A program made the position numbers and the translations under genes. Shown here piece by piece: positions 1-19,086 of a stretch of 34,132 nucleotides of DNA. This stretch comes from Planctomycetota bacterium (GTDB lineage Bacteria > Planctomycetota > MHYJ01 > WSZJ01 > JACPWG01): contig JACPWG010000184.1 of the NCBI GenBank assembly GCA_016197205.1, positions 1-34,132 on the forward strand, given 5' to 3'. The notes below the pieces were generated by a model. That model saw only the letters and a program-made list of their open reading frames with translations. It searched no databases and had not been told where the DNA came from. The stretch's first letter is position 1. Each line of letters starts with the position of its first letter.

Positions 1-123
1 ACTGTGTTATTACGGGAAGTAGTAGTGATTTGCGAAAACTGGCCTTTGCAAAATTAGACAAAAATAAACAAAATGCATATCCAAATTTTAGAACCGGCGT
101 AGATCTAAATAGCACAAAATATT
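1..123. other. AT-rich (about 30-35% GC) segment of foreign-looking DNA abutting a truncated sigma-factor copy
   Basis: The composition contrasts sharply with the roughly 70% GC of the rest of the window. The truncated sigma reading frame (88-399, minus) runs into this segment and terminates in it. Confidence 0.5.
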
Positions 124-399
124 CTGCTCCCGCAGCTCGTTCAGGCAGAGGTTCACCACGATCCGGAAGAGCCAGGTCCCGAACTTCGCGGTCGGGGCAT
201 ACCGTTCCCGCGCATTCCAGACGCGCACGAACACGTCCTGCCCGAGGTCCTCGCAGGCGGCCCGGTCGTTCGTGTACCGGTACACGGTGTTGAGCACGCT
301 CTTCTGGTACTTTTCGACGAGCTTCGTGAAAGCCTCCTCGTCGCCGCGCTGGAACCGGAGCATGAGGCCGACGTCGGGGTCCTTCGTGTACTCGGGCAT
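88..399 (-). pseudogene. Truncated ECF (sigma-70 family) sigma factor, region 2 only (copy 1). Homology continues through NLCLNELREQ, then the gene is broken by AT-rich DNA.
   Basis: The translation MPEYTKDPDVGLMLRFQRGDEEAFTKLVEKYQKSVLNTVYRYTNDRAACEDLGQDVFVRVWNARERYAPTAKFGTWLFRIVVNLCLNELREQ is a typical ECF sigma region 2.1-2.4. No region 4 follows. It is about 97% identical at the DNA level to 5134-5390. Confidence 0.6.
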
Positions 400-406
400 C
401 TCGGCC

Positions 407-598
407 TCATCCGCGGTGCTTCGGATGGAGGCCCCTGCGGCTCCCCTCCCGGACGGTGATCCCCTGCTCTTCGAACCAGTCCGAGAGCGGGATGACGTAC
501 TTGCGGCTCGTCGCGAGCGCCGTGCGGAAGTCCCCGGAGATCACCTCCCCCTTCTCCTGGACATCGTCCCACGTCCACCAGGAACTGGAATGTGTCAA
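407..598 (-). pseudogene. 3'-terminal fragment of selB (last roughly 50 codons), duplicated copy
   Basis: The C-terminal [50 protein letters not shown] is near-identical to the C-terminus of the full SelB at 5398-7335. Homology stops near 560, and the N-terminal residues MTHSSSWWTWDDV are non-homologous junction sequence. Confidence 0.6.
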
Positions 599-606
599 CT
601 ATCCCT

Positions 607-3390
607 TCACGAAGCATCCTCTACTCGTCTTTTTTCCTTTCGTAGCTCAACCCGGGCACAACGGCGCTTAAGGCTCACGTCCCACAGGGCACTCAGCGTG
701 GCAGCGCGCCATTTGAAGTACTCCCGCCGCGTCTCCGGCTTCCATGAGAACGTACCACCAAACGGATCAGCCAAGAAGTCCGCGAAACTACTCCCAGGCG
801 TCGGACGACGCCGGTTCCCGTCAGATTCCCGCACCAGCCAAATTTTCTTACGACGCCCTCCGGGGTCTGGCAGTGGGAGGAGAAGGGTCAAGTAGGCGCG
901 ACAGAGCGTGCTGACAAAAGTCAACTGGCTTTCGTCATTAGGATTGAATAGCGGCACTTCGCCCCTCTGGATCAGGGCACGCTTCACCTCAACCCTCATG
1001 CTCAACCTTGCTGTAGTCGCATTCACGTCTTGGGTCTCATAGGCAGCTTCGAAAGCCGAATTGGCCATGTTCGCATACGAGGACACGAGGTAGTTTAGAT
1101 AAGGGTTCGACATGGGCCTTTGGAACGACGCCGCAACCTCGGCGCTCAAGAAAGGAAGGTGATGGACAGACTCCAGCCAGTCACCCCAGATCGCTACACC
1201 CGTCGCAGGTCGAGAGAGGCACACAGCAAGACACAGACGGAGCAGAACAGTCATGGACTCGACGGGTCTTACATGTTCCGGCCCGTCATTTGGCAACAAC
1301 TCGCTCCCGCTCGCTAGCGCGGACCGACTCTGAAGAAAGTTGAACCAGTAAGCGTCAAGGAAGAGCCGAGCGTCAAACCCAAACATGACTGCCAGGTTGA
1401 AGACATCCGCAGCGACTTCCCTCAGGAGCCGCTTTGTCAAATTTACTCTCACCCTCCGGTCACGCCCGATCTCCATGCTTAGTTCTCTTAACGGAGGAGG
1501 AACGTCTTCAAAGGACAGCGGACTCTCGGGAAGACAATACTCAATCCAGGTCTCCATCCTATAGAAATTCTCATAATATACATGGCCAACTTCGTGCCCC
1601 ACCACGGTCGCAAAAGACTCTGGATGAAAGGCATCCCTCGGGCTCAGCTCGAGAGCAAACCGGTCCGACATTACGTCCGCAGTTCCGGAGATTGTCGCCA
1701 ACATCGGCGGAATGCCGAGCTGCTCCTCCCAAGGGGCAGGCCTATGGAATGGAGCTTGGCAAAGGATGTCATAGGCACCGGTCAGAGCCGTGGCGACTTG
1801 CTGAACGGCCCCGCGGAAGAGGGGATTAACGTCACGCTCCTGTGAGAATCGGGGGCTCGTATGAATCCTGTTCGCGTAGGCGTGGCCCCACCTTCGCAAT
1901 GCTTCGTCCAATTGCTCGACAAACGCGTCGCGCTTCGAGCAATCCCGCAGGCGGATATCCTCGGCCAGACGGTCGACAAATCCGGCCAAATCCACGAAAT
2001 CCGCATAGAGCAATCGGTCGTCAATCCCATCGTTGTAATTGGAGATCACACCGAGGAGCCGAGTTGTTACCGTGTCCGGAAGCGCGAGTTTTCTACAACT
2101 GTTCCGTATGGACTCTCGATCCTTGCTTGAAATGCGGAACAGCGGTAGGATCATTTCACGGTGGTAATAGTAATGGTCCCCAGCAACAGGAGGCAGCGGG
2201 CGCCCATATGGAAGAAACTGCCCGAGCAACGAATAGGTCTTGAGGGCATGATCTCGAATTGTCGCACCACAAGCCTTTGCAACAAATTCTGCAATGACTT
2301 CCCTCGACGACATTTCGCGCATGGCGAATTCTGGATGAATGAAATCAAACTTTCCGAGGGTTAATCTAACCTCTGGCTGCCCCCTCGGGTCCAGCAAGGA
2401 GCCGAGATGTCCCGGCCGGCTCGTCCACAGAGATGTGAAGTGGCATCTGTCTTTCTCGTCTGGCGGAGCTATCGGCTTGCCGATTGCACTGAGTTTGACA
2501 ACTCGGTCCTTGTGCGAAATATTCAGCCCCACAGCACCCGCCTCTACGGCTATGCGCTCTCGCTCGTTCTCCTGGATCCACCTCTCGAAAAGCTCAAACC
2601 GGAAACCTGCCGTTGTCCAGGCTGCGTCGAAAAGGTGACAATTACGGGTGCTGTGATCAAAAACGCTGTCCACCCAGTGGAGCGCGGCTGCCGCTTGTGC
2701 ATGCGAGGGCCACCCAGCAAACAGAGAATTCACGGATTCCTCGCGGAACTGATCAAGGACGCTCATGGACTCGGCGAACGACTTGCTCGCGATCAGCAGG
2801 GTGATTTCGTTCCATCCCATGCTCTGCAATTGGAGGAAAGAGCAAGGAACGGCGCCAGCAGTGGCCACCTTGTAGTTCAGCCACAACTGCACCCATCGAA
2901 GGAAATCGAATCCACCGCGCATCATCAGAACGGGGTTCAGCTTGAGCTGCGTCATGGTTAGGATTGGTAGCTGCTCCGCAGTTGCCAGGAAAGTCTTCAC
3001 TGCCGTGAGCGCGTCCGGTGGTGGAGCTCCTGGACATTCTCTATTCGAGGGCAGGAGTGGGACGAATCCGAAAAGTGACTGGTGCTGAAATCCATGGTCT
3101 TTTTCGGGGTCCGAGACGAATCCATTGAACGCATTGAAGTCCCTGAGGGCGAACGTTGCTCCATCCAAGGCCGCAACAACAAGCAGATCCCAGTCAGAGA
3201 AAATCGAGTAGATGTGCGGTACGTACAAACCGTCATCCAACGGGGCGCTGATGGAGGCCTCTAGGTTCGTTCGTCGGCGATCGAATAGCGGACGCACAGC
3301 TTCCTGGACCAGGGTCACCCGGTCCCGCCCTACTGGCGCCGTTACAAGTCCCACAAATACGCCCACGTCGCCCAGCCCAATCACAGGCAT
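607..3390 (-). CDS. Large hypothetical protein (927 aa) with an HExxH zinc-metallopeptidase-like motif (VVGHEVGHVYYENFY), in a lower-GC island
   Basis: This is a long ORF with coherent codon usage in DNA of about 50-58% GC. An HEVGH motif is followed by acidic residues (ENFYRMETWIEY). No family was confidently recognised. Confidence 0.6.
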   Translation of the reverse strand: MPVIGLGDVGVFVGLVTAPVGRDRVTLVQEAVRPLFDRRRTNLEASISAPLDDGLYVPHIYSIFSDWDLLVVAALDGATFALRDFNAFNGFVSDPEKDHGFQHQSLFGFVPLLPSNRECPGAPPPDALTAVKTFLATAEQLPILTMTQLKLNPVLMMRGGFDFLRWVQLWLNYKVATAGAVPCSFLQLQSMGWNEITLLIASKSFAESMSVLDQFREESVNSLFAGWPSHAQAAAALHWVDSVFDHSTRNCHLFDAAWTTAGFRFELFERWIQENERERIAVEAGAVGLNISHKDRVVKLSAIGKPIAPPDEKDRCHFTSLWTSRPGHLGSLLDPRGQPEVRLTLGKFDFIHPEFAMREMSSREVIAEFVAKACGATIRDHALKTYSLLGQFLPYGRPLPPVAGDHYYYHREMILPLFRISSKDRESIRNSCRKLALPDTVTTRLLGVISNYNDGIDDRLLYADFVDLAGFVDRLAEDIRLRDCSKRDAFVEQLDEALRRWGHAYANRIHTSPRFSQERDVNPLFRGAVQQVATALTGAYDILCQAPFHRPAPWEEQLGIPPMLATISGTADVMSDRFALELSPRDAFHPESFATVVGHEVGHVYYENFYRMETWIEYCLPESPLSFEDVPPPLRELSMEIGRDRRVRVNLTKRLLREVAADVFNLAVMFGFDARLFLDAYWFNFLQSRSALASGSELLPNDGPEHVRPVESMTVLLRLCLAVCLSRPATGVAIWGDWLESVHHLPFLSAEVAASFQRPMSNPYLNYLVSSYANMANSAFEAAYETQDVNATTARLSMRVEVKRALIQRGEVPLFNPNDESQLTFVSTLCRAYLTLLLPLPDPGGRRKKIWLVRESDGNRRRPTPGSSFADFLADPFGGTFSWKPETRREYFKWRAATLSALWDVSLKRRCARVELRKEKRRVEDAS

Positions 3391-3531
3391 GTCCGAGTCT
3401 CCACTTCAAGGAGGCCCCCGCCGCGTGCTGGAACTCCAGCGCCATCGTCAAGGTGGCGTCGTTCCAACGCGAATGGAGTGTGGCTTCAAATGTCGAGGGG
3501 CACCTTGCCCCCCCGGGCTTGACACCCATGT

Positions 3532-4011
3532 TCATCCGGACGAGGTGGGTGGGTTCGAGGTGTTCGCAGGCAGACCACCCAACGGTCTCTTCATGAACAG
3601 TCCCGCGTTGCCATACGCCCCTTCCCCGAGAGCCTGGAGGGTGTCGTGGATGATGTCCTCGTAGCGCCCCATCTTGCTCGTCCACCTCCCATCCGCTAGC
3701 TGTCGGGCTACATGGACGGGTCTGAGGAGATTAACGAAGACCGCGATCTTCTCGAATCCCGGCTCAAGCCCCCCATCAGGACACCTAGAATAACCCAGAG
3801 TGGCGAAACAGCATTCGAAGGTATCCAGACTCTCTTTGCACGGGCAACTTTGCGGCCAGTAGTAATTGCCGCTCGGGTGGGGCCACCATCTCCGCGTCGT
3901 GTCACACGCGGCCCATGCGACGCAGTTGTACCGGTCATCCGGCGGGCTCGTCACCGAGTAGCTCGCTGGAACCAGCAAGGGGAAGCTCGCAATGAACCGC
4001 GCTAAGCACAC
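3532..4011 (-). CDS. Hypothetical 159-aa protein. It has a hydrophobic N-terminus, possibly a signal peptide, a conserved-looking YNCVAWAA Cys motif and downstream His residues, so a papain-like or NlpC/P60-type hydrolase is a speculative call.
   Basis: The ORF directly abuts the stop of the upstream gene at 4012. The motif order is Cys then His, and the product is Cys-rich. Confidence 0.45.
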   Translation of the reverse strand: MCLARFIASFPLLVPASYSVTSPPDDRYNCVAWAACDTTRRWWPHPSGNYYWPQSCPCKESLDTFECCFATLGYSRCPDGGLEPGFEKIAVFVNLLRPVHVARQLADGRWTSKMGRYEDIIHDTLQALGEGAYGNAGLFMKRPLGGLPANTSNPPTSSG

Positions 4012-4602
4012 TTAAAGGAACCCAGCCTGTTTGCCCCAACTGACCCAGCACTTTCGCATTTCCTCAACCTGCCCCGCCTGTTCGGGCGGAACCGGATTCT
4101 TCTGCGTAATCTCTACGAGGGCGTCGAACCACAGTCCGCCGAACGACTCCAGGTCCCGGAGCAAAAGTGGTACGATTGCCCAGCCCATGTCGACGATGCG
4201 CTTGTATGCCGGATGACAGGCTAGGCGTGCAGGTGATGACTCAATCCCAGTCTCGTCCTTCCAAGTTTTCGCAAGCGAAGCGAACTTCTCTGCAACTCCA
4301 GGTTGGCTGAACTTAGCCGGCGCAAGGCTAGGAAGCGAGGGGTCCGTTGGGACGGGACAAAAGATGGGCGCTGGTGGAAAGTTCGGGCGCTCTGCGAGCC
4401 GCTTCAAGATCTGCCCTCGCGTCTCGGAGTCCCTGTCGTCCCAACCTAGCCGAATTCCTCCGGCGGCGGTCTCCTCAGTGGGATTCTCTTTCTCCTTGGG
4501 CATCTCGGTCTCCCACATGGCACATGCTGGGGTACGATCCCTCCTTCTTGGGTAGGAGGGCATGACCGGCCGGATTATACTGATCGCGGCCGAGGATGTC
4601 AA
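4012..4602 (-). CDS. Hypothetical protein (196 aa as tracked). The true start may be an internal Met near 4518 (MWETEMPKEKEN).
   Basis: The ORF lies in the low-GC island, on the same strand as and abutting the next gene, consistent with a three-gene operon. No recognisable family was found. Confidence 0.45.
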   Translation of the reverse strand: MTSSAAISIIRPVMPSYPRRRDRTPACAMWETEMPKEKENPTEETAAGGIRLGWDDRDSETRGQILKRLAERPNFPPAPIFCPVPTDPSLPSLAPAKFSQPGVAEKFASLAKTWKDETGIESSPARLACHPAYKRIVDMGWAIVPLLLRDLESFGGLWFDALVEITQKNPVPPEQAGQVEEMRKCWVSWGKQAGFL

Positions 4603-4971
4603 CCCTCGCTACAGCGCATCCGCAAGTAAGACATTTCGGTCGAGGACAGACGAATAGCGCCGACACCCAAGGGGCGTTCGGGCAGCGGGTCGTTGTACGG
4701 TCACTTCAAGCGTTGGACAACTTGCCGGTCGCCTGGCTCCAGCAGCCCGCCGCGCCTTCTTGGTCACGGCGAAGTGAAGCATGGGCACGGTCGGCGCGCC
4801 CCGCAGGGCGCTGCCCGGGTCCGGGGCAGGACAGGGGGCGCTGTCAGCGGGACGATCCATCGTGGGCGGCTCCTGGACTAGAAGAGCAGCCGCCGATTGT
4901 ATCCCGGACGCGAGACCGGGGGCAACGAAAAGTGCTGCCGGCGCCGAGCCGGAATCAACCCTGCGGTCGCC

Positions 4972-5390
4972 CTACGGGGCCTCGTCCAGCTCCAGGTACC
5001 GCGCCAGCAGCCGCTTCAGGCCCTCCCGCCCCCGAAAGAGGAGCGACTTCACCGCCGGCGTGGAAAGCTCCATCCGCGCGGCGATCTCCTCGTACGACAG
5101 CTCTTCGTATTTGTCCAGGATCAGCGCGAGCTCAGGCAGAGGTTCACCACGATCCGGAAGAGCCAGGTCCCGAACTTCGCGGTCGGGGCATACCGTTCCC
5201 GCGCATTCCAGACGCGCACGAACACGTCCTGCGCGAGGTCCTCGCAGGCGGCCCGGTCGTTCGTGTACCGGTACACGGTGTTGAGCACGCTCTTCTGGTA
5301 CTTCTCGACGAGCTTCGTGAAAGCGTCCTCGTCGCCGCGCTGGAACCGGAGCATGAGGCCGACGTCGGGGTCCTTCGTGTACTCGGGCAT
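4972..5390 (-). pseudogene. ECF sigma factor (copy 2) with a frame disruption. Region 2 (5134-5390) is in one frame, and region 4 (4975-5133, LPELALILDKYEELSYEEIAARMELSTPAVKSLLFRGREGLKRLLARY) is in the -1 frame with almost no linker.
   Basis: The region-2 ORF ends at ...RIVVNLCLSSR*. The region-4 helix-turn-helix is only readable by shifting frame at exactly the point where the direct repeat with copy 1 begins. The usual linker of about 30-50 aa between regions 2.4 and 4 is missing. Confidence 0.6.
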
Positions 5391-5397
5391 CTCGGCC

Positions 5398-7335
5398 TCA
5401 TCCGCGGTGCTTCGGATGGAGGACCCTGCGGCTCCCCTCCCGGACGGTGATCCCCTGCTCGTCGAACCAGTCCAGGAGCGGGATGACGTACTTGCGGCTC
5501 GTCGCGAGGGCCGTGCGGAAATCCCCGGAGATCACCTCCCCCTTCTCCTGGATCTGCTTCACGAGGAGCTCGCGCGCCTTCTCGATCGCCTTCTGGTGCA
5601 GGAGGATGTCGTCCTTCAGCCGGATGATCGTCCCCGACTCCACGAGGATCCGCAGCACCTGCGCCGCTTTCTCCGCCGTCGCCTTGAGCAGCCCGGGCAG
5701 CTCGTCCGGACGCGGCGTGTTGAACTCCGTCTCCAACAGGAGCTGCTCGAGCTGCCCCGACAGCCGCCGGAACTCGTCGTTCATGCGGACCTGGAAGTTC
5801 GCGGCCCGCAGGAAGGCGTTCTCCTCGACCACCGCCGCCGTCCGCAACAATTCGCCGAGGACGAGGTCGTACGCTTCGTTCTCCAGCTCGAGCCGGTTAC
5901 GGAAGGCGATCCGCTCGATCCCCGCGCGGAGCGGGTTCTCGGCGTGAAAGGCCGCGAGCGAGGCCAGCGCCTTTTCGCGGGTCTTCGCGAGCGCGTCGAC
6001 GTGGAGGAAGCGGTTCCCCTGGTGAATCGGGATGAGCCGGCCCTTGGCCACGAGCGCGGCCAGGAGCTCCGCCGTCCGCTCGACGGTGAGCCCGGTCTCG
6101 TGCGCCACCGGGTCGCGCGCGAGCGCACGCGCGCCGGAGGCCTTCACCGCATACTCGACGGAGGGCTCCGCGTCCGTCATCACGCGCTCTCGCTCGGAGA
6201 GGTCCTCGAGGACCTCCGCGCGGTTGCGGCGGAGCTTGCGCCCAAGCGAAGCGATGATCTTGCCGCCGCCGATCGTCACCGTCGGCGACTGGTGGCGCAC
6301 GACGAAGTAGTCGCCGGGGGCGGCGACCACCGGGTCTTCCAGGAGGAACTGCACGAGGACCTCTTCGCCCGGGGACGCCTCTTTTCGATCGAGCAGGATC
6401 ATCTTCCCCATGACCTCGGCCGTGCCCGTGTGGAACCGGATCGGCAGGTGGGTCTTCAGCGGAACGGTGAAATCGCTCAGGTAGCTGAGGCGCGCCTCGA
6501 CCGTCGTGCGCGCCTGGAAGTAGCCGGGCGTGGCGACGACGAAGCCGCGGACGACGAGGTTGTGGTCGACGTCGCTCACGTTGAGCGCGGAGGAGTGGCC
6601 GGCACGGACCTCGTTCACGTCGCTCTTGTACGCCTGCAGGCCGCGGATGCGACCCGTCTTGCCGAGCGGGAGGAACTCGACGGTGTCTCCGAGCGAGGCC
6701 CGGCCCGAGAGCGGGATGCCGGTGACGACCGTGCCGAAGCCTTTCGCCGAGAAGACGCGCTGGACCGGCATGCGGAAGGCGCCGTCCGTGCTCTTCGGCG
6801 GCGTGGCGGCCACCATCGCGTTCAGCGTGTCCCAGAAGTGCGGGAAGCCTTCGTCGGTCACGACGGAGATCGGGCAGAGGGGCGCGGTCTCGAGGAAGCT
6901 CCCCTTCACGAGGTCGCGGACCTCTTCGATGACGACCTCGGTCAGCTCGCGATCGACCATGTCGATCTTGGTGACGACGACGATGCCGCGCTTGACCCCG
7001 AGAAGGGACATGATGTGGAGGTGTTCGCGCGTCTGGGGCATGACGCCGTCGTTGGCGGCGACGAGGAGCAGGACGAGGTCGATCCCGGTCGCGCCGGCGA
7101 CCATGTTCTTGACGAACTTCTCGTGCCCGGGCACGTCGACGATGCCGATGCGGCGGCCGTCTTTGAGCAGGCAGGGCGCGAAGCCGAGGTCGATGGTGAG
7201 CCCGCGCTCCTTTTCCTCGGGCAGCCGATCGGGATCGATCCCCGTGAGCCGGCGGACGAGGGAGGACTTGCCGTGGTCGATGTGGCCGGCGGTGCCGATC
7301 ACCACGTTCACGATGGGGGGGGCGACGCGGGGCAT
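5398..7335 (-). CDS. selB: Selenocysteine-specific translation elongation factor SelB
   Basis: The G1 motif [13 protein letters not shown], the motifs DVPGHEKF and [12 protein letters not shown], and the EF-Tu-like domains II/III plus C-terminal winged-helix repeats all align with E. coli SelB along the whole length. The tracked ORF (to 8274) carries an Arg/Pro-rich artefactual N-terminal extension; the real start is [18 protein letters not shown]. Confidence 0.85.
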
Positions 7336-8495: not shown

Positions 8496-8613
8496 GGGTC
8501 GGCGCGCCTCCCGGAGGTGAGTGACGCGGGGAGTGTACCGGAGCGCCGCGGGGAAGTCAACCGTGTGGGGGGAGTGGCCAGCTCAGGGCTCCCCGTGCCG
8601 GCTAAACGCGGTC

Positions 8614-8656
8614 GAAATTTGAAATTTGAAATTTGACTTTTTGCAATTTGAAATTC
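8614..8656. promoter_or_regulatory. AT-rich tandem heptamer array (GAAATTT)x3 plus a spaced fourth copy (CAATTTGAAATTC), in a divergent intergenic region
   Basis: The sequence gaaatttgaaatttgaaatttgactttttgcaatttgaaattc sits between the IMPase gene (minus) and the HEPN module (plus). It is unusually AT-rich for this genome. Confidence 0.3.
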
Positions 8657-8837
8657 GGCCCGGCCGTGTGGGTCGAATGCGAGACTTTTACACACAGACG
8701 CGGAGACGCAGAGGCCGGGCGCTGAGTGCAGCGTCGTCTACCGGCACGGTTCGATCATGCCTCGATGGTCCTTGATCGCGCTCACGCGGAAAGCCTAGAA
8801 TGAAGGAGATGGTCGGCCCTCAGACTGGAGTCGAGTC

Positions 8838-9173
8838 ATGTCGAAGACCTTGCACGAAGACGCGGTCGGGAGCGATCCCTCGGGGCTGGGACCCCCAACC
8901 GACGTGGGCGAATTCATGGCGCAGCACGGACTCACGGCCTCTGCCCAAGTGTGCCTCGCGCTCGTCCGCAGCAACTTCACGGATCTCCTCAGCTCTTCGC
9001 TGGCGCTTCGTGAAGATCCGGAGACCGGTGATCGCTGGATTGCCTTGGAGATCACGCTCGGCGGCGCGACCTCCTCTTTCATGGAAGCCTATCTCGCCTA
9101 CACGCGAGAGTTCCTCGTCGCGATACCGCCGGCACTTCGTCCGCTCCTTCGACTGTCCTACAACGCGGCCTGA
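8838..9173 (+). CDS. Hypothetical 111-aa protein, possible partner (antitoxin-like) of the downstream HEPN protein
   Basis: Its stop lies 5 bp before the start of the HEPN gene, and a plausible RBS (ggagtcgagtcATG) is present. It has no nucleotidyltransferase (MNT) motifs. Confidence 0.45.
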   Translation: MSKTLHEDAVGSDPSGLGPPTDVGEFMAQHGLTASAQVCLALVRSNFTDLLSSSLALREDPETGDRWIALEITLGGATSSFMEAYLAYTREFLVAIPPALRPLLRLSYNAA

Positions 9174-9178
9174 GGGCG

Positions 9179-9622
9179 ATGAATCCACGCGACCTCCACC
9201 GGCTCGCCTCCCTTCTCTGCTCGCAGGCCCACGCGGGGCCCGCGGCCTCACGCACGGCGATCAGCCGATGCTACTACGCGGCATTTCATGTCGCCGCCGA
9301 GTTTCTTCGCGGGCGGAAGATGCCTGTACCCCGCAACGCCGGAGGGCATCGCGAAGCGCTTCTCCGCCTCATGAGCCTTCCGGAGCCTGACATCCGACTC
9401 GCGGCCGCCCTGATCGGAGACCTTCAGACGAAGCGGATCGAGGCGGACTACGACATGTCGCATGTCGGCGTGGAGCGGATCGACACGGCAAGGCGATGCG
9501 TCGAGAGCGCCCTCACGGTGATCGGTCTGCTTGACGGGAAGTGTAGATGCGACGAACTTGCCGGAGCGCATGCGCTCATGGATAGGGCGCCACTGTCGCG
9601 CCGACGCACTTCTTCGTCGTGA
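9179..9622 (+). CDS. HEPN-domain protein
   Basis: The motifs AISRCYYAAFHVAAEFL, RNAGGH (Rx4H) and LQTKRIEADYD resemble the HEPN (pfam05168-like) consensus. Confidence 0.65.
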   Translation: MNPRDLHRLASLLCSQAHAGPAASRTAISRCYYAAFHVAAEFLRGRKMPVPRNAGGHREALLRLMSLPEPDIRLAAALIGDLQTKRIEADYDMSHVGVERIDTARRCVESALTVIGLLDGKCRCDELAGAHALMDRAPLSRRRTSSS

Positions 9623-9733
9623 GCGTTTTCGAAAACGGGGCAAAGTGGGGGACACGTACTACTTTTTCTTCGGGCTCCGCGACGTTTGCTGCGAGGTGGA
9701 CTCGGCTGCGCGGGGGCGACCGCGCGGCTTCGG

Positions 9734-11229
9734 GGGTGCATCCCACTTTGGGGGTCAGGTGAATCATGCAGATTTCCGAAGCCGCGGGCTGTCCCACAAC
9801 CGCCCCCATTGCCCGGTCAGGTACAGCGTCCGCAGGCCCATTACATGCTCGGCACCGAGCTCGCCCCAGAACATGCCGGGGCCCTTCATGCGCATGGAGA
9901 ACAGCTGTTTACAGAAACTCTCGATGGCTCCGGATCCGATGCAACGGCCCGCTTTTCGGTTTTGGGCGTAGCGGGTCAAGCCATGATGGTTGTCCAGGTA
10001 CGTAGCGAGCTTGTTCAAGGCCTCAAGCTTTTTTGCCGCGTTCAAACCTCGTGGCTTCATGCGGTCCAGGGCGAGAATCGTGCTGGTGTCCCATCCTCGC
10101 CAGAGCCTGGCCATCATGCGGTCCACCCAGCACGCAGCGGCAGAGGTTTCCTCCCCGTGTAGCGCCTTGGCGGCCTCCCAGACATGCTCCTTCAGGTGAT
10201 AATAGTCGAGAATGTGCACGGCCCATGGGTACTGGTCGGCCCACTGCCAGATCCACTCGGCCCCATCGGCGATGATGATCACCTCCCAGTCGGTCCCCGG
10301 TGCCAAGCGGGTCATCCAGCGATCCAGTACACTCAGCACCTTGGACTTGTCGAGAGGATGGCTGATTCCCCGTTTTTCCCAACCACCCTTCTCGTTTCGC
10401 CACAGGACGAGGGCGGTGCAGGGCTCGCGCCACTCGCCGCCGTTCTGACGCGTGCGGATGCGTCCGCCATCCATCATGACATAGACCTGGCTTCCTTTCG
10501 GAGGAAGACTCTTCGCGGAGTCCGCCGGCGCCTCTGCCATGGCCTCCTTTGCTCGCGGTCCCAGGGCGGCGATGGTGCGCTGCACACGATTGTCGTCCAC
10601 CGTCAGGCCCGACATTTCCTCCACAGCGGCCTGGGCTTTCTCGAAGGACAGGTTGACACCCGCGATGGCGACGGCACTGGCGCAGGCCGCGCTCATGTGA
10701 TTCACGGCCTGAAGTGCCTCCTGAACCGCCCCGAGATGCCGTCCGCACTTCCGGCATACGGCTGTCCACTCTGGCACCCTGATGCTGCCCACGAGCAGTT
10801 GCAAACCGATGACTTTCATACCCTTGCCCTTCAAGGGGCCTTGGCAGAGCTCGCCACTCGGATTCGAGTGTCCTCGATCGCGTAGCGCCTTCCGAAGGTC
10901 CGGATCGGCATGCTCAAGAGCACTAATGGCGAGCGATGCTCCGAGCGACTGTAGCGAGATACGGAAACGCTGCTCTGCTTTGAGGGCAGAGAACTTCGGA
11001 CCGATGCCTCCTAGGAATTCCGTCACAGCGTTCACCAAGTTTCCAGCTTCTGCTTCGATTGCTTGCCGAACGACTGTATCCAGGGTATGCTGGTCCACCG
11101 TGGTATCCTCCTCTGCGCGGCGGGCTGGGCCTGCCGCATGGTTAATTCGGAAGCAGGGAGGATACCACAACTTTATCGGCTGTAAAGATTTCCTACGTTG
11201 AATGCCGGGCCGTTAGGCTGGGATGCACC
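9734..11229 (-). mobile_element. Complete insertion sequence (1496 bp) with 12-bp terminal inverted repeats GGGTGCATCCCA and an 8-bp target-site duplication GGCTTCGG
   Basis: The left end 9734-9745 is gggtgcatccca, and the right end 11218-11229 is tgggatgcaccc, its reverse complement. Identical direct repeats ggcttcgg flank it at 9726-9733 and 11230-11237. A single transposase ORF fills the element. Confidence 0.75.
9764..11170 (-). CDS. DDE transposase (468 aa), possibly ISKra4/ISLre2-like; the family assignment is tentative
   Basis: It lies inside the IR/TSD-bounded element and shows transposase-like conserved segments (VMMDGG, IIADGAEWIW, YYHLKEHVWEAA, CIGSGAIESFCKQ). Confidence 0.7.
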   Translation of the reverse strand: MWYPPCFRINHAAGPARRAEEDTTVDQHTLDTVVRQAIEAEAGNLVNAVTEFLGGIGPKFSALKAEQRFRISLQSLGASLAISALEHADPDLRKALRDRGHSNPSGELCQGPLKGKGMKVIGLQLLVGSIRVPEWTAVCRKCGRHLGAVQEALQAVNHMSAACASAVAIAGVNLSFEKAQAAVEEMSGLTVDDNRVQRTIAALGPRAKEAMAEAPADSAKSLPPKGSQVYVMMDGGRIRTRQNGGEWREPCTALVLWRNEKGGWEKRGISHPLDKSKVLSVLDRWMTRLAPGTDWEVIIIADGAEWIWQWADQYPWAVHILDYYHLKEHVWEAAKALHGEETSAAACWVDRMMARLWRGWDTSTILALDRMKPRGLNAAKKLEALNKLATYLDNHHGLTRYAQNRKAGRCIGSGAIESFCKQLFSMRMKGPGMFWGELGAEHVMGLRTLYLTGQWGRLWDSPRLRKSA

Positions 11230-11677: not shown

Positions 11678-14600
11678 TCAGGGCCTCGGCCCCTGCGGAT
11701 CGCCGGTCTGCGTCGGCGCCTGCCGGATGCGGCGTTCCAGGTCGTGGCCGCCTTCGAGGGCGAGGATGACGAGCTCGGACCCGGCGGCGCCAGCCCAGCG
11801 GCGGACGGAGAGGGAAGGGCGGAAGGCGAGGGGCCACAGAAACTGTGGAAACCACGCGACCGCCTCGCGGGTGTCCGCGCGTGCGAGTGCGAAGCCGACA
11901 AGTGCGCCCGCCGACCGCCATGGGACCTGCCTGTGGCCGTAGGCGACGGAAAGGGCATCCGACGATCCGTCGATGACCTGGAGGCACTCGCCAGTCCCCG
12001 TGTCCCAGACGACGACGGTGTCCCCGGACAGGCCCGCGATGCGGCCACCATCGGGCGAATAGGCGAGGCTCGTGACAGACCGCCCATGCCCGCGGAGGCA
12101 CGCGATCTCCCGGCCCGTCGTCGCTTCCCAGACGCGGACGGTCTTGTCCCAGGACCCGCTCGCGATCCGGACGCCGTCGGGTGAAAACGCGACGCTCCAG
12201 ACAACCTGCTCATGCCCGGGGAGGCACGCGATCTCCCGGCCCGTATCCGCTTCCCAGACGCGTACTGTCCCGTCGTTCGCTCCGCTCGCGATCCGGCCGC
12301 CGTTGGGCGAGAAGGCAATGCTGTTGACTTGGTCGCCATGCCCACGAAGGCAGGCGACCTCCCGGCCCGTCTCCAATTCCCAGACCCGTACCGTGTTGTC
12401 GCACGACCCGCTCGCGATCCGGCCGCCATCGGGTGAGAAGGCGACGCTTTCGACACTGCCCTCATGCCCGCGGAGGCAGGCGATTTCCCGGCCCGTCGCA
12501 GCGTCCCAGATGCGCACGGTCTTCTCTAGCGACCCGCTCGCGATTCGGCCGCTGTCAAGCGAGAATGCGACGCTCGTGACTTCTTTCTCATGTCCGCGGA
12601 GGCAGGCGATCTCCTGGCCCGTCGAAACGTCCCAGATGCGCACCGTCTTCTCCCGCGACCCGCTAGCGACTCGGCCGCCGTCGGGCGAGAAGGTGACGCC
12701 GCAGACCCAATCATTAAAAGTGCGGACGCAGGCTAGCTCCCGGCCCGTCGTCGCGTCCCAGACGCGGACGGTCTTGTCCCAGGACCCGCTCGCGATCCGG
12801 CCGCCGTCGGGTGAGTAGGCTACACTCTCTACACTGCTTTCGTGCCCCCGGAGGCAGGCAACCTCCTCGCCCGTCTCCGCTTCCCAGACACGCACAGTGT
12901 GGTCGTACGACGCGCTCGCGATCCGGCCGCCGTCGGGCGAATAGGCCACACTCGTGAACATGCTCGTATGCCTGTGGAAGGGGATCTCCCTGCCCGTCCT
13001 GACTTCCCTCTCGCGCATGTCCTGGTCGTACGCCCCGCTCCACTTCCAGCCACCGTCGGGCGAGTAGGCGTCGCCTTCCACGAAGTCCTGATGGGGGCGA
13101 ATGCAGGCGACCTGCCGGCCCGTCTCCGCTTCCCAGACGCGTACTGTCCGGTCGCACGACCCGCTCGCGAGCCGGCCGCCGTCGGGTGAGAAGGCAACGC
13201 TTTCGACACTGCTCGCATGACCGCGGAGGCAGGCGATCTCCCTGCCCGTCGCCGCGTCCCAAACGCGTACGGTCTTGTCGCGTGAGGCGCTCGCGATCCG
13301 GCGGCCGTCGGGCGAGAAGGCAACGCTCTTGACGGAGAGTTGATGCCCGCGAAGACATGTGACCTGCCGGCCCGTCTCCGCTTCCCAGACGCGTACTGTC
13401 CGGTCGCACGACCCGCTCGCGAGCCGGCCGCCGTCGGGTGAGAAGGCAACGCTTTCGACACTGCTCTCATGACCGCGGAGGCAGGCGATTTCCCTGCCCG
13501 TCGCCGCGTCCCAGACGCGCAGAGTCTCGTCGTTCGAGCCGCTCGCGATCCGGCCGCCGTCGGGCGAGAAGGCGACACTCGTGACCGAGTACTCGTGCCC
13601 GCTGAGGATCAACTCCAGCGGGGAGTCCACGGCCGTCGCGGGGGGCCGGATCGATCGCAGCCATGGGAAGTCCGGCGTCCGGCGCTCCTTCGCCGCCCGC
13701 CACGCCTCCAGGAGCGCGCTTAATTTCGGGCCCTCCCGCTCCCAGGGCGCACCCCCCGGCCCCCATCCGCCTTCCGGCGGGTCATAGTGCTCGGCGGCCT
13801 CCGCGCAGTCGTGCCACCAGCACGAGTTCCACAGGCACTGGAAGAGCGCTGTCGGATGGAGAGCGACGAACGCCGCGTCCCGCGAGATCGCCTTCCCCAG
13901 GAGCCGCACCCGCTCGCGCCCCGGCCGGTCCGCCTCAAGCACCCGCTTCGCCTCGGTGAAATCCCCTACCAGCTCTAGCGCCCGCCCGGCCGCCGCCTTC
14001 ACCTCCAGGTACACGAGGTCCGTCAGCACCGCCTCCAGATCGTCCTCACGCCCCGCCCGCGCGAGATGCGCGGGCAGATGCGCGATCATGTACGCCGACA
14101 TCCGCTCCGCACCCCGCCCGTGCTCCCTCATTCCCTCCTCGGCCAGCCGCCGCTCTCCATCCGCCGCGTCGACGGCGTACGGGCCCGCTAGGTGCAGACC
14201 CGTACGCCGGTCCTTCGTCGTCAGCCAGTCGCTGACAGACTGGTGGAAGGGCGCGACGGTCTCTGCCTCCTCCTTTGCGGTCGTCCCGGTCGCGGCCCGT
14301 CGGATCGGGAAGAGCGACCCCAACTCGCCGAGCTGTTCCCGCAGCTCGAAATCCGAGAGCCCCGCCGCCGCCGCCGCGATGCCCAGCGGAAGCGGCCCAC
14401 GCTGCGCGCAGATGGCACCCACCAGCGACCGGGTCCCGCGGCCGTACTCCTGCACCTCCGGGAACTGGCGCTGGAAGAACTTCTGGTAGTACCCCGCCAG
14501 CCCGACGGGGAACTCCTCCGGGCGGTCCAGCGAGAGCCGCCCCACGACCAGCTCCTCAAGCACGACCTTGGCGTAGAGGAACACACCCTCGCTTCGTCTC

Positions 14601-16354
14601 ACGACCTCGTCCACGGCCACCCCGCGCGGAGCGAACCCACGCGCGGTCAGCTCGCTCCACAGGTAGTCCCGTATGTCCTGCAGGTTCTCTGCCCGCTCCG
14701 CCTCGAACACGTAGGGCGCCAGCCCGGCCAGCGTCGACATTACCCCCGATTCGGGTCGGCTCGTCACGAGGAGGCGAAGCCAGAGTGGCGTCCTGGGCCA
14801 GCAGTCGCGCACCACCTCCGCCAGCTCGTTCCGACCGTTGCGCGTGCTCTCGTCGAGCCCGTCCAGGATCACCAGCCGTGGCGTATCCGGCGCCGGGAAA
14901 TCCTTCCCCAACGGCTGGACCCACAGGGTGTCGAAGACCGTGTACGCGTTCGCCGCGGCCTGCGCCTCCACGTCCAGGGCCTGCAACCGCCGATCGTACT
15001 CCGGCAGGTGCTGCGCCATCTGGTACGCTAGCGAAAGTAGCGCCTTGCGCGGGTCGGCCTTTTCATCGTGGCCGTGCACGCAGAGGTGATGGGCGGCGAC
15101 CCGGCCGTGGTAGTGCGCCAAGTGGGCGGCGAAGGCGGACTTGCCCACGCCCGGCCCGCCGACGAGCCAGAAGATCCGGCTCGCATCCGTCGGGCCCGCC
15201 ACGGGCGGAGCGCCCGGAGCCGCCTGAGCCACGGGAGCGGCAGCCGCGCTGGTCGCCCCGACCTCGCCGGCCAGCCAGCGATCCACCTCCGCGCGGAGCC
15301 AGTGCCGCCCGGTGAAGGCCGCCACGTGCCGGGCGATGTCCGCGTCGAAATCGAGCGGCCGGAGCGCTCGTTTGAGCCGCGCCTGCCCTCCCTCGAAGTC
15401 CAATTTGTCGCACTCCAGGGCGTCCAGCAGGCGCTTGAAGCGGCTCGCGTACTTCTCTGCCTTCTCCTCCGGAGGCAGGCAATCCCGCAGGTCCAGGTAT
15501 TGGATTCGGCAGATCGATATCGGCGGTCCGTTCGCGAGCCCGGCCACGAGCACGGGGATGATCAGCATGTTGCGCTCCAGGGCCTTCGCGATCTCGTTGA
15601 GGCAGAACCCGTCCGTCGAGGACGGATCACGCGGGTCGCGCCGGCGCACGGAGTGCGGCGTCATCAGAAGGAGCATTTTGTCGCAGCTCCTGAGTCCCTC
15701 CTCGATGTAGGCCGGGAAGTCCTGCCCGAGGCGGAGCCGTTCCACGTCGAACCAGACTTTGTGCCCGCGCCGTTCCAGGTCCCGCTTGATCCGCGACGCG
15801 ACGGGCTCGTGCTCGTCGTGCCCGTAGCTGAGGAAGACGCGGATCGGCCGGTCGGCGGCCGACGGTGAGGCAGCGCCAGACTCGGGTCCAACGGCCGGAC
15901 TCGATGTGCCCATCGCCGCGGTCGCCGGCGTGCCCGCGGTCAGGCTGACGGTCGTAGCCACGGTCGCCCGCGTCGAAGACGCCGCGCCGGGTCCGAGCGC
16001 GTCCTTCGCGCGCAGGATCGTCATCCGGTGGCCCACGGACGCGACGCCGATTTCCTTTAGCAAGTCGTGCGTCAGGTCGCGAAACGGCGCGTCCGCCGTG
16101 TCGCTCAGATGATTTGCTGCGAAGGCCTCGGCGTATTGCGGCAGCCCGAGCTCGGCCAGCCATTCGCGAATGTCCACCCCGGTCTCTCCGATCACACAGT
16201 TCGGGACCGTGTCAGAAGTCCGAGCTCTGCGATACCCCAGAGCAGCCGATGGCCGCAACCAAAGGGACGAGCCACCGAAGACGCCGAAAACACCGAAAGA
16301 CGAACCGCGAATTGCGCCGACTGCGCGAATTTTCTCCTGGGAATTCGTTGCCAA
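11678..16354 (-). CDS. STAND NTPase with SAM, TIR, NACHT and about 14 WD40 repeats (1558 aa as tracked; start uncertain, possibly GTG near 16195)
   Basis: A SAM-like segment (IREWLAELGLPQYAEAFAANHLS...LLKEIGVASVGHRMTILRAKDAL) is followed by a TIR domain (IRVFLSYGHDE...GFCLNEIAKAL, carrying the conserved catalytic-Glu motif). Next comes a NACHT domain with Walker A GGPGVGKS, Walker B LVILDGLDE and sensor LLVTSRP. It ends with many GHxxSVxSVAFSPDGxRIASGSxDxTVRVWDAxTGRE WD40 repeats. Confidence 0.85.
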   Translation of the reverse strand: MATNSQEKIRAVGAIRGSSFGVFGVFGGSSLWLRPSAALGYRRARTSDTVPNCVIGETGVDIREWLAELGLPQYAEAFAANHLSDTADAPFRDLTHDLLKEIGVASVGHRMTILRAKDALGPGAASSTRATVATTVSLTAGTPATAAMGTSSPAVGPESGAASPSAADRPIRVFLSYGHDEHEPVASRIKRDLERRGHKVWFDVERLRLGQDFPAYIEEGLRSCDKMLLLMTPHSVRRRDPRDPSSTDGFCLNEIAKALERNMLIIPVLVAGLANGPPISICRIQYLDLRDCLPPEEKAEKYASRFKRLLDALECDKLDFEGGQARLKRALRPLDFDADIARHVAAFTGRHWLRAEVDRWLAGEVGATSAAAAPVAQAAPGAPPVAGPTDASRIFWLVGGPGVGKSAFAAHLAHYHGRVAAHHLCVHGHDEKADPRKALLSLAYQMAQHLPEYDRRLQALDVEAQAAANAYTVFDTLWVQPLGKDFPAPDTPRLVILDGLDESTRNGRNELAEVVRDCWPRTPLWLRLLVTSRPESGVMSTLAGLAPYVFEAERAENLQDIRDYLWSELTARGFAPRGVAVDEVVRRSEGVFLYAKVVLEELVVGRLSLDRPEEFPVGLAGYYQKFFQRQFPEVQEYGRGTRSLVGAICAQRGPLPLGIAAAAAGLSDFELREQLGELGSLFPIRRAATGTTAKEEAETVAPFHQSVSDWLTTKDRRTGLHLAGPYAVDAADGERRLAEEGMREHGRGAERMSAYMIAHLPAHLARAGREDDLEAVLTDLVYLEVKAAAGRALELVGDFTEAKRVLEADRPGRERVRLLGKAISRDAAFVALHPTALFQCLWNSCWWHDCAEAAEHYDPPEGGWGPGGAPWEREGPKLSALLEAWRAAKERRTPDFPWLRSIRPPATAVDSPLELILSGHEYSVTSVAFSPDGGRIASGSNDETLRVWDAATGREIACLRGHESSVESVAFSPDGGRLASGSCDRTVRVWEAETGRQVTCLRGHQLSVKSVAFSPDGRRIASASRDKTVRVWDAATGREIACLRGHASSVESVAFSPDGGRLASGSCDRTVRVWEAETGRQVACIRPHQDFVEGDAYSPDGGWKWSGAYDQDMREREVRTGREIPFHRHTSMFTSVAYSPDGGRIASASYDHTVRVWEAETGEEVACLRGHESSVESVAYSPDGGRIASGSWDKTVRVWDATTGRELACVRTFNDWVCGVTFSPDGGRVASGSREKTVRIWDVSTGQEIACLRGHEKEVTSVAFSLDSGRIASGSLEKTVRIWDAATGREIACLRGHEGSVESVAFSPDGGRIASGSCDNTVRVWELETGREVACLRGHGDQVNSIAFSPNGGRIASGANDGTVRVWEADTGREIACLPGHEQVVWSVAFSPDGVRIASGSWDKTVRVWEATTGREIACLRGHGRSVTSLAYSPDGGRIAGLSGDTVVVWDTGTGECLQVIDGSSDALSVAYGHRQVPWRSAGALVGFALARADTREAVAWFPQFLWPLAFRPSLSVRRWAGAAGSELVILALEGGHDLERRIRQAPTQTGDPQGPRP

Positions 16355-17040: not shown

Positions 17041-19086
17041 CTATCGCGCCGCGGGCGGAGGGGTGCTTTCCCACACGCGCGACATGCCCAGGAGCAGCAG
17101 CTCCACAATGCGGTCGAGGTCCCGGGTGCGGAACAGTTCGAGGTTCTCGGCCACGGAGAGTCCGTTCGCCCGCGACAGGCCTTCCACGCCTGTTTCTCGC
17201 AGGAAGGCGGTCATGTCCGGGTAGTCCCACCAGGCAACGCCCTGCTGCTCATAGATGCGACGCATCTCCTCCGCATGAGGCGCCTGCTTCTGGTAGTCCC
17301 AGGTGAATTCCTGCCGAGGGCGTCCCTCCAGGAGCTCGACGAGGACGGCGCAGGCCCCGCCGAATGCGCCGCAGACGTACAGGGGGCGGGCCGCCCGCAC
17401 GGTGAGGAGCGCCTCTTCGAGGACGCCGGGGATGCGCCCGCTGTACCACGCTTTCTCCCGGCCGCCATCCGGACGCGCTGTCATCGTCGGGCCCACCTTT
17501 CCGCCGATGACGACGCGCGCGTGCACCTCGGCGACCTGTCGCTCCCGCATCGCCGTCATCCCCCGAGCCCACGCGTACCGGCGCACCGGACTCGTCGCCG
17601 CGAAAAACACCGGTTCCGCAACAAAGGTCCCGGGTTCGAGCGCCTCGACGCCGGGGGGGCGCTGCGTGCGGATGAAGGTGGCCAGATTCTGGAGCTTCGC
17701 GCGCTTTTCCTTGGGCAGCGTGTCATACGGCAACGGCCAGCCGACATAATTCCGAATCCGCTCAACGGGCGGCAGGGTGCTCAGCGACTGATGGGCGCGG
17801 ATAAGATCGCACAGCGCGACCGTGTAGCCTTCGCTACCCAGATGGCCGCCGTACGCGAGGCCGGCGCCCCTGACCAGGAGATGCCGAGAGACCTCGAGCA
17901 ACGCCGAGTCGAGGTGCTCGCGCAGGACGCCGTAGCGCTCGGGGTCGTCGCTTTCTGAAACCGACACCGCGACGGTCCATTGCGAGAGCTTCTTGTCCTT
18001 GCCCGCGCGCTGAAGGGGAGTCTCCACCCGATGTCCGAGCGGCCCGAGCACCTCCAGCTCCTCGTCCCCCAGAGGAGGGTCCGGGTAGAGGACGCTGCTC
18101 TGGGGCGGGAGCCGGACCAGCGAGGCGAGCTCCGGCGGCGAGCTGAAAACGAGATCCTCCGGGCGTTTTTGCCCTGCGAGGACTTTCGAGACGTGCAGAA
18201 AGCGAAGCGTCTCCTTCAGCAGGAGGTCGATGGCGCGTTGCGCACCGGCGTTGCGGTAGGAAAGCACGGGCGCGTTCCCCAGGTACGGGAAGCTGCGCGT
18301 GTCGAGACCGGCGAGGGCATCCACGACCACGAACGGCCGCTGATGCTCCTTTGCCAGGAGCACTTCGCGTCGACACCAGGGGCGCCCGCCGTACCGCGTG
18401 GTTGCCAGCACGAGCAAGGCGGAGTCGCGCACGCCCCGGCTGATCTCCTCTGCGAACTCGGAACCGCCGTCGATCCGGGCGCTATCCACCCATGCCTCGA
18501 CGGGCTGCGTGGCGTTCAGGTGCTCGACCACCGCGTTGAAGACCCGCGGCTTCTTGTCGATGTCGAGCTTTGTGTGGCTGACGAACACCTTGAGCGGGAC
18601 GCGCGGACCTTGTTCGAGCCCCATCAGGAAACGGCACAGCGCGATGACTACGCGACGCTCGGTCCAGGCGGTGCGTTGGCCCCATGGCTGCGCATGAGCT
18701 TTGACAAAGCTGGTTCCCTCCAGGCGACGATCGAGCGGCCATGCGGACTCCGAGAGCTGGATCGGCAGGAACTGGTGCCGACCGTCCCGGCACCGCTCTG
18801 CCAGGTCGCCGACAAACGCGGGCCACGCCTGCCGTCCCGGCGGCACTTCGGCCGGTTCGAGCACCATGTCGCTGTCGGCGAAAACGACGACGAGGCTGTG
18901 TTCCGCCTCGTCAAGATCGTGGCGCGCGGGGGGGAGGCCAGTGCCATCCTCGGGCAGAACCACGGTCGGCACGCGCAGACCCGGCAGCGCGGGATCGTCA
19001 TGCAGCGCACGGTGGATGGCGACGGCGAGCTCCCGCGCGTCGGTCGAGTCAGGGTGAAAGACGAGGTGAACCAGCAGGGGCGTCAC
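17041..19086 (-). CDS. TIR-domain protein with a C-terminal SLOG/LOG-like (STALD-like) domain (681 aa). The start is a GTG overlapping the stop of the upstream MVP gene (GTGA).
   Basis: The central TIR is KVFVSHTKLD...GSEFAEEI...LLVLATTRYGGRPWCRREVLLA, with the catalytic-Glu motif. The N-terminal roughly 130 aa are a possible second, degenerate TIR-like fold. The C-terminus has Rossmann-type Gly-rich motifs LVRGAGLAYGGHLG and VVIGGKVG...LYVCGAFGGACAVLVELLEG, reminiscent of LOG/SLOG domains. Confidence 0.7.
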   Translation of the reverse strand: MTPLLVHLVFHPDSTDARELAVAIHRALHDDPALPGLRVPTVVLPEDGTGLPPARHDLDEAEHSLVVVFADSDMVLEPAEVPPGRQAWPAFVGDLAERCRDGRHQFLPIQLSESAWPLDRRLEGTSFVKAHAQPWGQRTAWTERRVVIALCRFLMGLEQGPRVPLKVFVSHTKLDIDKKPRVFNAVVEHLNATQPVEAWVDSARIDGGSEFAEEISRGVRDSALLVLATTRYGGRPWCRREVLLAKEHQRPFVVVDALAGLDTRSFPYLGNAPVLSYRNAGAQRAIDLLLKETLRFLHVSKVLAGQKRPEDLVFSSPPELASLVRLPPQSSVLYPDPPLGDEELEVLGPLGHRVETPLQRAGKDKKLSQWTVAVSVSESDDPERYGVLREHLDSALLEVSRHLLVRGAGLAYGGHLGSEGYTVALCDLIRAHQSLSTLPPVERIRNYVGWPLPYDTLPKEKRAKLQNLATFIRTQRPPGVEALEPGTFVAEPVFFAATSPVRRYAWARGMTAMRERQVAEVHARVVIGGKVGPTMTARPDGGREKAWYSGRIPGVLEEALLTVRAARPLYVCGAFGGACAVLVELLEGRPRQEFTWDYQKQAPHAEEMRRIYEQQGVAWWDYPDMTAFLRETGVEGLSRANGLSVAENLELFRTRDLDRIVELLLLGMSRVWESTPPPAAR

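Follow-up and report, generated by a model that had tools for sequence, protein, structure and literature searches.

The window analysed here, that is, the complete 34,132-bp contig JACPWG010000184.1 of a Planctomycetes metagenome-assembled genome (MAG; locus tags HYZ53_), carries near its left end three minus-strand open reading frames (ORFs) encoding proteins of 927, 159 and, as initially called, 196 residues (Table 1), which are embedded in DNA of low GC content. Calculated in 400-bp windows, the GC content is 0.52–0.62 from ~600 to ~4600 versus 0.65–0.75 further right. The overall values are 0.573 for 607–4602 and 0.689 for 5132–34132, and no other 4-kb window of the contig exhibits a GC content below 0.645. 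Likewise, the GC content at third codon positions (GC3) is 0.63, 0.72 and 0.66 for the genes of the 927-, 159- and 196-aa proteins, respectively, compared with 0.82–0.94 for five native genes (those for selB and for the WD40, TIR-SLOG, MVP-like and AMP-binding proteins). An earlier note, made from the sequence alone, had proposed on the grounds of low GC content and flanking direct repeats that this island is of foreign origin. Composition and the bracketing repeats bear this out: the segment from 562 to ~4610, ~4 kb in length, has been acquired horizontally and carries two unrelated modules. The three ORFs were confirmed in their positions, with the start of the third gene being corrected below. 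The island does not exhibit the hallmarks of an integrative mobile element: no integrase-type Pfam match was obtained for the three island proteins, a tRNA search of the window found none, and neither a tRNA nor short att repeats mark the borders. Paralogues of the three proteins are not present within the window.

The 159-aa protein is a member of Pfam family DUF7689 (PF24738), the profile of which is matched at positions 2–118 of 118 with 118.8 bits (gathering cut-off 22.6; E-value 2.8e-34). Its homologues are stand-alone proteins of ~135–211 aa, 114 of which exhibit 38–54% sequence identity. In an alignment of 30 sequences, residues N29, C30, H100, A102, R103, Q104, W110, S112, K113 and H122 are invariant, while D119 is conserved in at least 90% of the sequences. 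The AlphaFold model of the protein is confident (pLDDT 91.5) and reveals an α+β fold resembling papain and NlpC/P60 in which (i) C30 is located at the start of helix 30–34, (ii) H100 resides in strand 97–104, and (iii) H122 resides in strand 119–122. The fold, together with a conserved Cys at the N-terminus of a helix and a His and a third polar residue on strands, is what characterizes papain-like enzymes, and DUF7689 is, as judged from the model, a candidate Cys-His-His hydrolase with a papain fold. The previous guess of a papain-like hydrolase thus stands at the level of both the fold and the active site, since Cys30, His100 and His122 are invariant. Its companion, i.e., that the protein is secreted, does not, because the N-terminal 20 residues belong to the conserved, well-modelled domain; consistently, the N-terminus of the homologues reads LExxFPxL and is acidic rather than signal-like. 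The PF24738 entry describes a domain of unknown function; both the obligatory upstream partner and the Cys/His/His triad are findings of the present analysis and do not derive from it.

Immediately upstream of the DUF7689 gene lies what we refer to as the partner gene. Its stop codon adjoins the DUF7689 start codon, so that the two genes indeed abut as had been noted. The TTG codon from which a 196-aa product had been called is, in fact, part of the −35 hexamer of a promoter, so that translation must begin at ATG 4563 or ATG 4503; the NCBI annotation gives the 163-aa version. The promoter, TTGACA-17-TATAAT, is the single perfect site in the whole 34-kb contig (0/100 shuffles) and coincides, at 4602–4574, exactly with the GC transition. 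It is predicted to drive the partner–DUF7689 cassette; a search for an inverted repeat that might serve as an operator near the promoter found none. The conserved part of the partner is a C-terminal domain of ~92 residues (encoded by 4015–4290) with the consensus F..L...WR.ET...SS......HPAYQ.IIGMG..A.PLIL.EL.....HWFWAL.AITG.DPV....RG....M..AWL.WG. This domain has no relative in Pfam, and a sequence profile search of the PDB gave noise only; the pattern may resemble that of a HEAT-like helical repeat. The N-terminal part of the partner is hypervariable, and the shortest partners comprise just 107 aa. Among 51 partners, two possess a recognisable additional N-terminal domain, namely DUF433 (1.6e-21) and DUF6364 (weak, 0.0021), while the partner in the window has none. 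The former is found in a partner from Nostoc (locus L014, 5432–5953), in which DUF433 precedes the conserved C-terminal domain within a single protein. In Synechocystis, PIN toxins have DUF433/COG2442 as their antitoxin (PMC4963859), and the Nostoc fusion is the clearest link of the partner to a known antitoxin architecture.

A set of 85 loci was fetched through DUF7689 and searched for the partner domain by tblastn (here and below, loci are designated by L numbers). The partner domain is encoded directly upstream of DUF7689 in 83 of these loci, with the other two having no upstream DNA (83/83 informative loci). In most loci, the partner stop and the DUF7689 start codons overlap or are a few nucleotides apart (mostly −40 to +9 nt). 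An apparent fusion of the two proteins in L007 was rejected as an ORF-calling error, a TGA codon separating the two genes. At least 564 loci were confirmed in genomes of GTDB species representatives spanning Planctomycetota, Cyanobacteria, Acidobacteriota, Nitrospirota, Chloroflexota, Proteobacteria and others, and some genomes harbor two copies (L060/L083 and L075/L085). The GC content of the cassette is below that of its distal flanks in 46 of 57 loci, by 5.2 points on average (Wilcoxon p=1.3e-8). The contexts of the pair vary from locus to locus and include DUF433/PIN pairs, a type III-like methylase/helicase pair and housekeeping genes; in a set of 141 flanking ORFs, N6_N4 methylases, type I S subunits, AAA_15/21 and NACHT recur amid ordinary metabolism. 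Signs of a polymorphic-toxin, type VI secretion system (T6SS) or extracellular contractile injection system (eCIS) context, for which the note had advised to look, were not seen: DUF7689 is stand-alone and devoid of a trafficking domain, and VgrG, Hcp, PAAR, Rhs and sheath families are absent both from the top 25 Pfam families of the 141 flanking ORFs and from the window genes scanned.

The 927-aa protein represents an unnamed family. An exhaustive HMMER search identified 321 representatives (50%-identity clusters), 39 of which score below 1e-30. All members found are unnamed metagenomic proteins, and most comprise 870–1000 aa and align end-to-end at 22–30% sequence identity. Matches of the protein or its homologues were found neither in Pfam (above threshold) nor in NCBIfam, PADLOC or PHROGs; PDB sequence profiles of the family and of its HE-containing sub-region gave noise only, and tblastn of the family against plasmids and phages yielded no match. 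The N-terminal domain exhibits the tandem ferredoxin-like α+β barrel fold of chlorite dismutase, HemQ and DyP. However, its sequence identity with chlorite dismutase, HemQ, DyP and ABM proteins is just 9–14%, with no Pfam or PDB sequence match, and, in contrast to chlorite dismutase, HemQ and DyP, it is attached to ~600 residues without structural relative. Moreover, residues 1–290 of the family alignment contain no His that is invariant or conserved at 90% or more, and the family thus lacks a conserved candidate haem ligand. The conserved motifs of the family are SNYNDGIxD, NRF...KGGIQQ, HxFxPE...HE and FDPxGG...RR, and the invariant polar residues in these motifs probably point to an enzyme, albeit of no known kind.

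The HEVGH motif on which the note had based a gluzincin-like peptidase is present as described (residues 599–603) and, as in zincins, is located in a long helix after short strands. Among 30 family members, E600 is invariant (30/30) and H599 is found in 23. In contrast to zincins, however, the second His, at position 603, occurs in 5 of the 30 only (Asn in 17), a third ligand is not conserved, and there is no structural match; the segment following HEVGH is gapped and modelled with low confidence. The sole peptidase signals are sub-threshold and coincide with the motif itself (MPTase-PolyVal, 5e-4, for one homologue; Peptidase_M48, 0.25, for the window protein), and neither a zincin fold match nor a family hidden Markov model (HMM) above threshold was obtained for the 927-aa protein. 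The complete HExxH motif thus being restricted to 5 of 30 members, the peptidase reading fails, and the 927-aa protein is not a demonstrable zincin.

Several observations pertain to the genomic contexts of the 927-aa homologues. They include a response regulator and a TraG-like protein, and in L113 the homologue is located between two Mrr_cat-NACHT-WD40 proteins. One clade features two small same-strand genes upstream (L115, 1380–2326; L101, 5153–5946; L093, 5273–5967), the products of which resemble membrane proteins (multi-pass, ~140–170 aa, and single-pass, ~90 aa). Genes of sigma-70/extracytoplasmic function (ECF) type are located 23–42 nt downstream of the longer homologues (1060–1250 aa) in L106, L108 and L110, and Sigma70_r2/r4 matches were obtained for the scanned sigma genes of L106 and L110. 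A general link of the family to sigma factors was considered and rejected, the association being confined to the one subclade formed by these three loci. The occurrence of sigma-factor gene fragments on both sides of the island in the window, described below, may be a coincidence or reflect a clade-specific link.

The note had viewed the three genes as a compact operon encoding a single system, the products of which match no family. The 159-aa protein is in fact matched by a Pfam family, and the other two have hundreds of homologues. NCBIfam, PADLOC and PHROGs returned no family for the 159- and 196-aa proteins. A word-indexed search had returned only the 927- and 196-aa proteins themselves; their apparent orphan status was discarded as a sensitivity artefact because HMMER, and tblastn on the fetched loci, found homologues. 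A homologue of the 927-aa protein is present in none of the 85 DUF7689 loci, and a homologue of DUF7689 or its partner in none of 22 metagenome loci of the 927-aa family. Since the three genes do not co-occur elsewhere, the juxtaposition of the pair and the 927-aa gene is specific to this contig, and the notion of a three-gene system is not sustained. The earlier idea of a toxin, effector and immunity set is reasonable for the partner–DUF7689 pair, and not for the three genes together, with the 927-aa gene being unlinked. On the other hand, the similar GC content, the single promoter and a terminator-free spacer between the DUF7689 and 927-aa genes allow for co-transfer and, perhaps, for co-transcription of the 927-aa gene.

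Table 1. Features of the acquired segment, its borders and homologous loci. Positions refer to the window unless preceded by a locus designation.
Feature	Position	Strand	Remarks
Contig end, AT-rich	1–140		interrupts copy A of sigma gene after NELRE
Repeat copy A	141–561	−	selB 3' fragment (~400–561) and sigma codons 1–86 (399 down to 141)
927-aa protein, unnamed family	607–3390	−	N-terminal ~280 aa tandem ferredoxin-like; C-terminal ~600 aa helical
HEVGH (residues 599–603)	1596–1582	−	
Spacer between DUF7689 and 927-aa genes	3391–3531	−	141 nt
DUF7689 protein, candidate papain-fold Cys/His hydrolase, 159 aa	3532–4011	−	Pfam PF24738
His122 in IIHD	3654–3643	−	
His100 in HVARQ	3714–3700	−	
Cys30 in YNCVAWAA (residues 28–35)	3930–3907	−	
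196-aa ORF as called	4012–4602	−	TTG start; over-extended
Partner gene	4012–4503	−	163 aa from ATG 4503, or 183 aa from ATG 4563
Predicted promoter TTGACA-17-TATAAT	4574–4602	−	perfect sigma-70 consensus (12/12 hexamer positions); right-hand edge of low-GC DNA
Sigma region-4 fragment (ELALILDKYEELSYEEIAARMELSTPAVKSLL...)	4972–5133	−	out-of-frame join to N-terminal part in copy B
Repeat copy B	5132–5552	−	sigma codons 1–86 and true 3' end of full-length selB
U1, ~250 aa	e.g. L024 4556–5305, L041 4242–4991		14 loci
U2, ~227 aa	e.g. L022 4725–5405, L064 4701–5381		13 loci, mostly cyanobacteria
U3, ~85–120 aa	e.g. L065 5209–5487		at least 5 loci
U4, ~125–150 aa	e.g. L073 5173–5577		4 loci
Sigma genes beside 927-aa homologues	L106 9766–10398; L108 9204–9866; L110 9236–10009 and 4246–4830		

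The borders of the island are formed by direct repeats which had been described as 410 bp long; they comprise 421 bp and bracket all three ORFs. The two copies exhibit ~9 mismatches (~98% identity) at a spacing of 4991 bp, and each contains the final ~160 nt of selB together with codons 1–86 of a gene for an ECF sigma factor. Since they extend over 421 bp and consist of coding sequence (selB and sigma), the repeats by far exceed a target-site duplication in length and do not represent short att sites. In copy A, four plausible sigma codons (NELR) follow the repeat before the 140-nt AT-rich contig end is reached; the latter has no blastn match among plasmids and no Rfam family, and may mark either a chimeric join or the place where another insertion ends. 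The sigma gene next to selB (4972–5390, minus strand) is a pseudogene in the assembly, with region 2 fused out of frame to region 4 and ~50 middle codons missing between codon 86 and region 4. The sigma gene is thus broken in both copies, since copy A runs into the AT-rich end and copy B lacks the middle part. An independently assembled Logan contig (L001; run SRR12113391) is identical (100%) to 532–5020. As it extends from the island into repeat A for 30 nt, this junction is not confined to the output of the MAG assembler. That contig ends inside repeat A on one side and, on the other, at 5020, which lies within the region-4 fragment of the sigma gene rather than at the boundary of the repeat (5132); this indicates that the assembly graph branches at, or close to, either end. 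When the two sigma fragments and selB were looked up as exact proteins to reveal alternative contexts, no record was returned.

Taken together, it is most likely that the partner–DUF7689 pair is toxin-antitoxin (TA)-like or effector-immunity-like, and we rank this reading first. It is suggested by the perfect promoter that the cassette possesses, by its variable contexts, by the DUF433-bearing partner, and by the precedent of Cpe1/Cpi1, a papain-like toxin which acts on cytoplasmic targets and is blocked by a small cognate protein (PMC12136450). The complete explanation, in which a single acquired piece of DNA carries such a TA-like pair alongside an unrelated 927-aa protein, is put forward tentatively, with a probability that we place slightly short of an even chance. 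The first module (4602–3532, minus strand) would then be a self-promoted cassette in which a small helical partner is translationally coupled to DUF7689. DUF7689, a putative cytoplasmic cysteine hydrolase, would be the growth-inhibiting component, the C-terminal domain of the partner would bind and neutralise it, and the variable N-terminus of the partner might sometimes supply a DNA-binding, antitoxin-type domain. The second module (3390–607) would encode a probable enzyme composed of a double ferredoxin-like N-terminal domain and a helical C-terminal region with an invariant Glu in a conserved HE, and this protein, as far as the locus comparisons indicate, is not a functional partner of the first module.

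Several findings weigh against this reading. TA modules are usually common on plasmids and phages, and tblastn of DUF7689 against plasmids and phages gave no match, although these collections barely sample the relevant phyla. With a recognisable additional N-terminal domain in only 2 of 51 partners, most are without the DNA-binding domain that type II antitoxins typically carry. No terminator is predicted in the 141-nt spacer, and the 927-aa gene may thus be co-transcribed with the pair and might have a local functional link to it. No publication mentioning DUF7689 was found in the literature searched. Furthermore, in at least 36 of 79 loci a third gene precedes the pair on the same strand and abuts the partner gene. 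These genes belong to four mutually unrelated families, U1–U4 (Table 1), none of which is in Pfam; U1 may resemble NCBIfam TIGR04255, a name that was not met in the literature searched. Because such third genes recur, the data are accommodated no worse by a three-component system than by a simple TA pair. What is strictly conserved is the pair, and the third gene is optional and exchangeable.

The alternative arising from these third genes is that the pair forms the core of three-gene conflict or defence systems, composed of a cysteine peptidase and its adaptor, inhibitor or substrate, in which the 927-aa protein here fills the exchangeable third role. U1–U4 elsewhere, the absence of a predicted terminator between the DUF7689 and 927-aa genes, the homologue flanked by two Mrr_cat-NACHT-WD40 proteins, and the defence-type genes among the neighbours of the cassette are all consistent with this view. 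However, the third gene is located downstream in the window and upstream in all other cases, the 927-aa family never adjoins the pair elsewhere, in many loci the pair stands by itself (among them loci in which the partner is reduced to 107 aa and the gap upstream is short), and none of the three proteins is matched in PADLOC. We consider this alternative rather unlikely, yet one to be taken seriously. Much less probable still is the original proposal of one operon encoding a toxin/effector/immunity or peptidase system with a gluzincin-like 927-aa protein and a secreted papain-like hydrolase: adjacent same-strand genes with a common low GC content, HEVGH in the window protein and weak zincin Pfam matches for two family members had made it plausible, but it is largely refuted by the comparative data. 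One may also view DUF7689 as a housekeeping cell-wall hydrolase of NlpC/P60 type next to an unrelated upstream gene, given that peptidoglycan endopeptidases are among its best structural matches; yet the protein shows no sign of a signal peptide and is devoid of cell-wall-binding domains, and the patchy, multi-copy distribution, the GC content below that of the host and the strict coupling to the partner gene render this very improbable.

It may further be asked whether the repeat-flanked layout, and possibly the placement of the island itself, is an artefact of MAG assembly, arising from mixed strains or from a chimeric join. The window represents an entire MAG contig whose left end is formed by 140 nt of unrelated AT-rich sequence, neither copy of the sigma gene is intact (the out-of-frame junction between its N-terminus and region 4 lies at 5131/5132), and the ends of the Logan contig point to graph branches. 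However, the Logan contig reproduces both the island and its junction with repeat A at 100% identity, the ~9 differences between the repeat copies indicate distinct sequences rather than a single collapsed copy, and the gene content of the island is independent of the junctions; we thus regard an artefact as improbable. It is, finally, tempting to extend the first-ranked, TA-like reading by speculating that the pair constitutes the core of hitherto undescribed, phylum-spanning mobile conflict modules of two to three genes, in which a toxic papain-fold hydrolase and a helical inhibitor would be combined with exchangeable sensors or co-effectors (U1–U4 or the 927-aa protein), and that the 927-aa family is a separate, new class of enzymes with a chlorite-dismutase-like scaffold and an HE-centred active site. 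In this combined form the proposal is doubtful, albeit worth stating.

When compared with known systems, the pair resembles type II TA modules in that it consists of two small, overlapping and co-oriented genes which always occur together and have their own predicted promoter; it is likewise patchy, multi-copy and lower in GC content than its host, is found beside other TA and restriction-modification (R-M) genes, and occasionally has the antitoxin-type domain DUF433 (PMC4963859) as part of its partner protein. It differs in that no DNA-binding domain is recognisable in most partners, a third gene often accompanies the pair, and plasmid or phage matches are lacking. To our knowledge, the papain-like fold of DUF7689 is not among the established folds of TA toxins. 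With papain-like proteins of clan CA (NlpC/P60, CHAP, AvrPphB/YopT and C39, as well as the toxins Tae3, Tse1, CdiA-CT and Cpe1) DUF7689 shares just 5–14% sequence identity, and no member of the clan scores in Pfam for the DUF7689 protein. DUF7689 further differs from these proteins in being devoid of secretion or trafficking and cell-wall-binding domains, and its partner gene is located upstream, that is, in an antitoxin-first order.

If the pair is a TA or defence module, a papain-fold cysteine hydrolase would be added to the known activities of TA toxins, and the module thus defined would be one that occurs in at least 564 species-level genomes, particularly of Cyanobacteria, Planctomycetota, Acidobacteriota and Nitrospirota, and for which a DUF number is the only annotation. 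Being absent from Pfam, both the partner domain and the 927-aa family (at least 321 clusters at 50% identity) represent candidates for family definition. For annotation in general, the locus illustrates that a lone HExxH motif in one sequence can be misleading, and that a word-indexed search can falsely suggest orphans.

Elsewhere in the window, a second, milder low-GC stretch at 8600–11200 (GC 0.57–0.63) may be another acquired segment; it contains ORFs 8800–9390 (plus strand) and 9764–11170 (minus strand), neither of which has a Pfam match, with the latter exhibiting a GC3 of 0.72. A 1558-aa protein with many WD40 repeats is encoded at 11678–16354 (minus strand). Finally, the minus-strand region 17041–22139 encodes a 681-aa TIR_2 and SLOG protein (LD_cluster2, 1.9e-59), the gene of which overlaps by 4 nt with that of an upstream 1018-aa protein with Major Vault Protein shoulder and Vault_3 repeat domains, and this TIR-SLOG and vault-like gene pair looks like a conflict-system operon.

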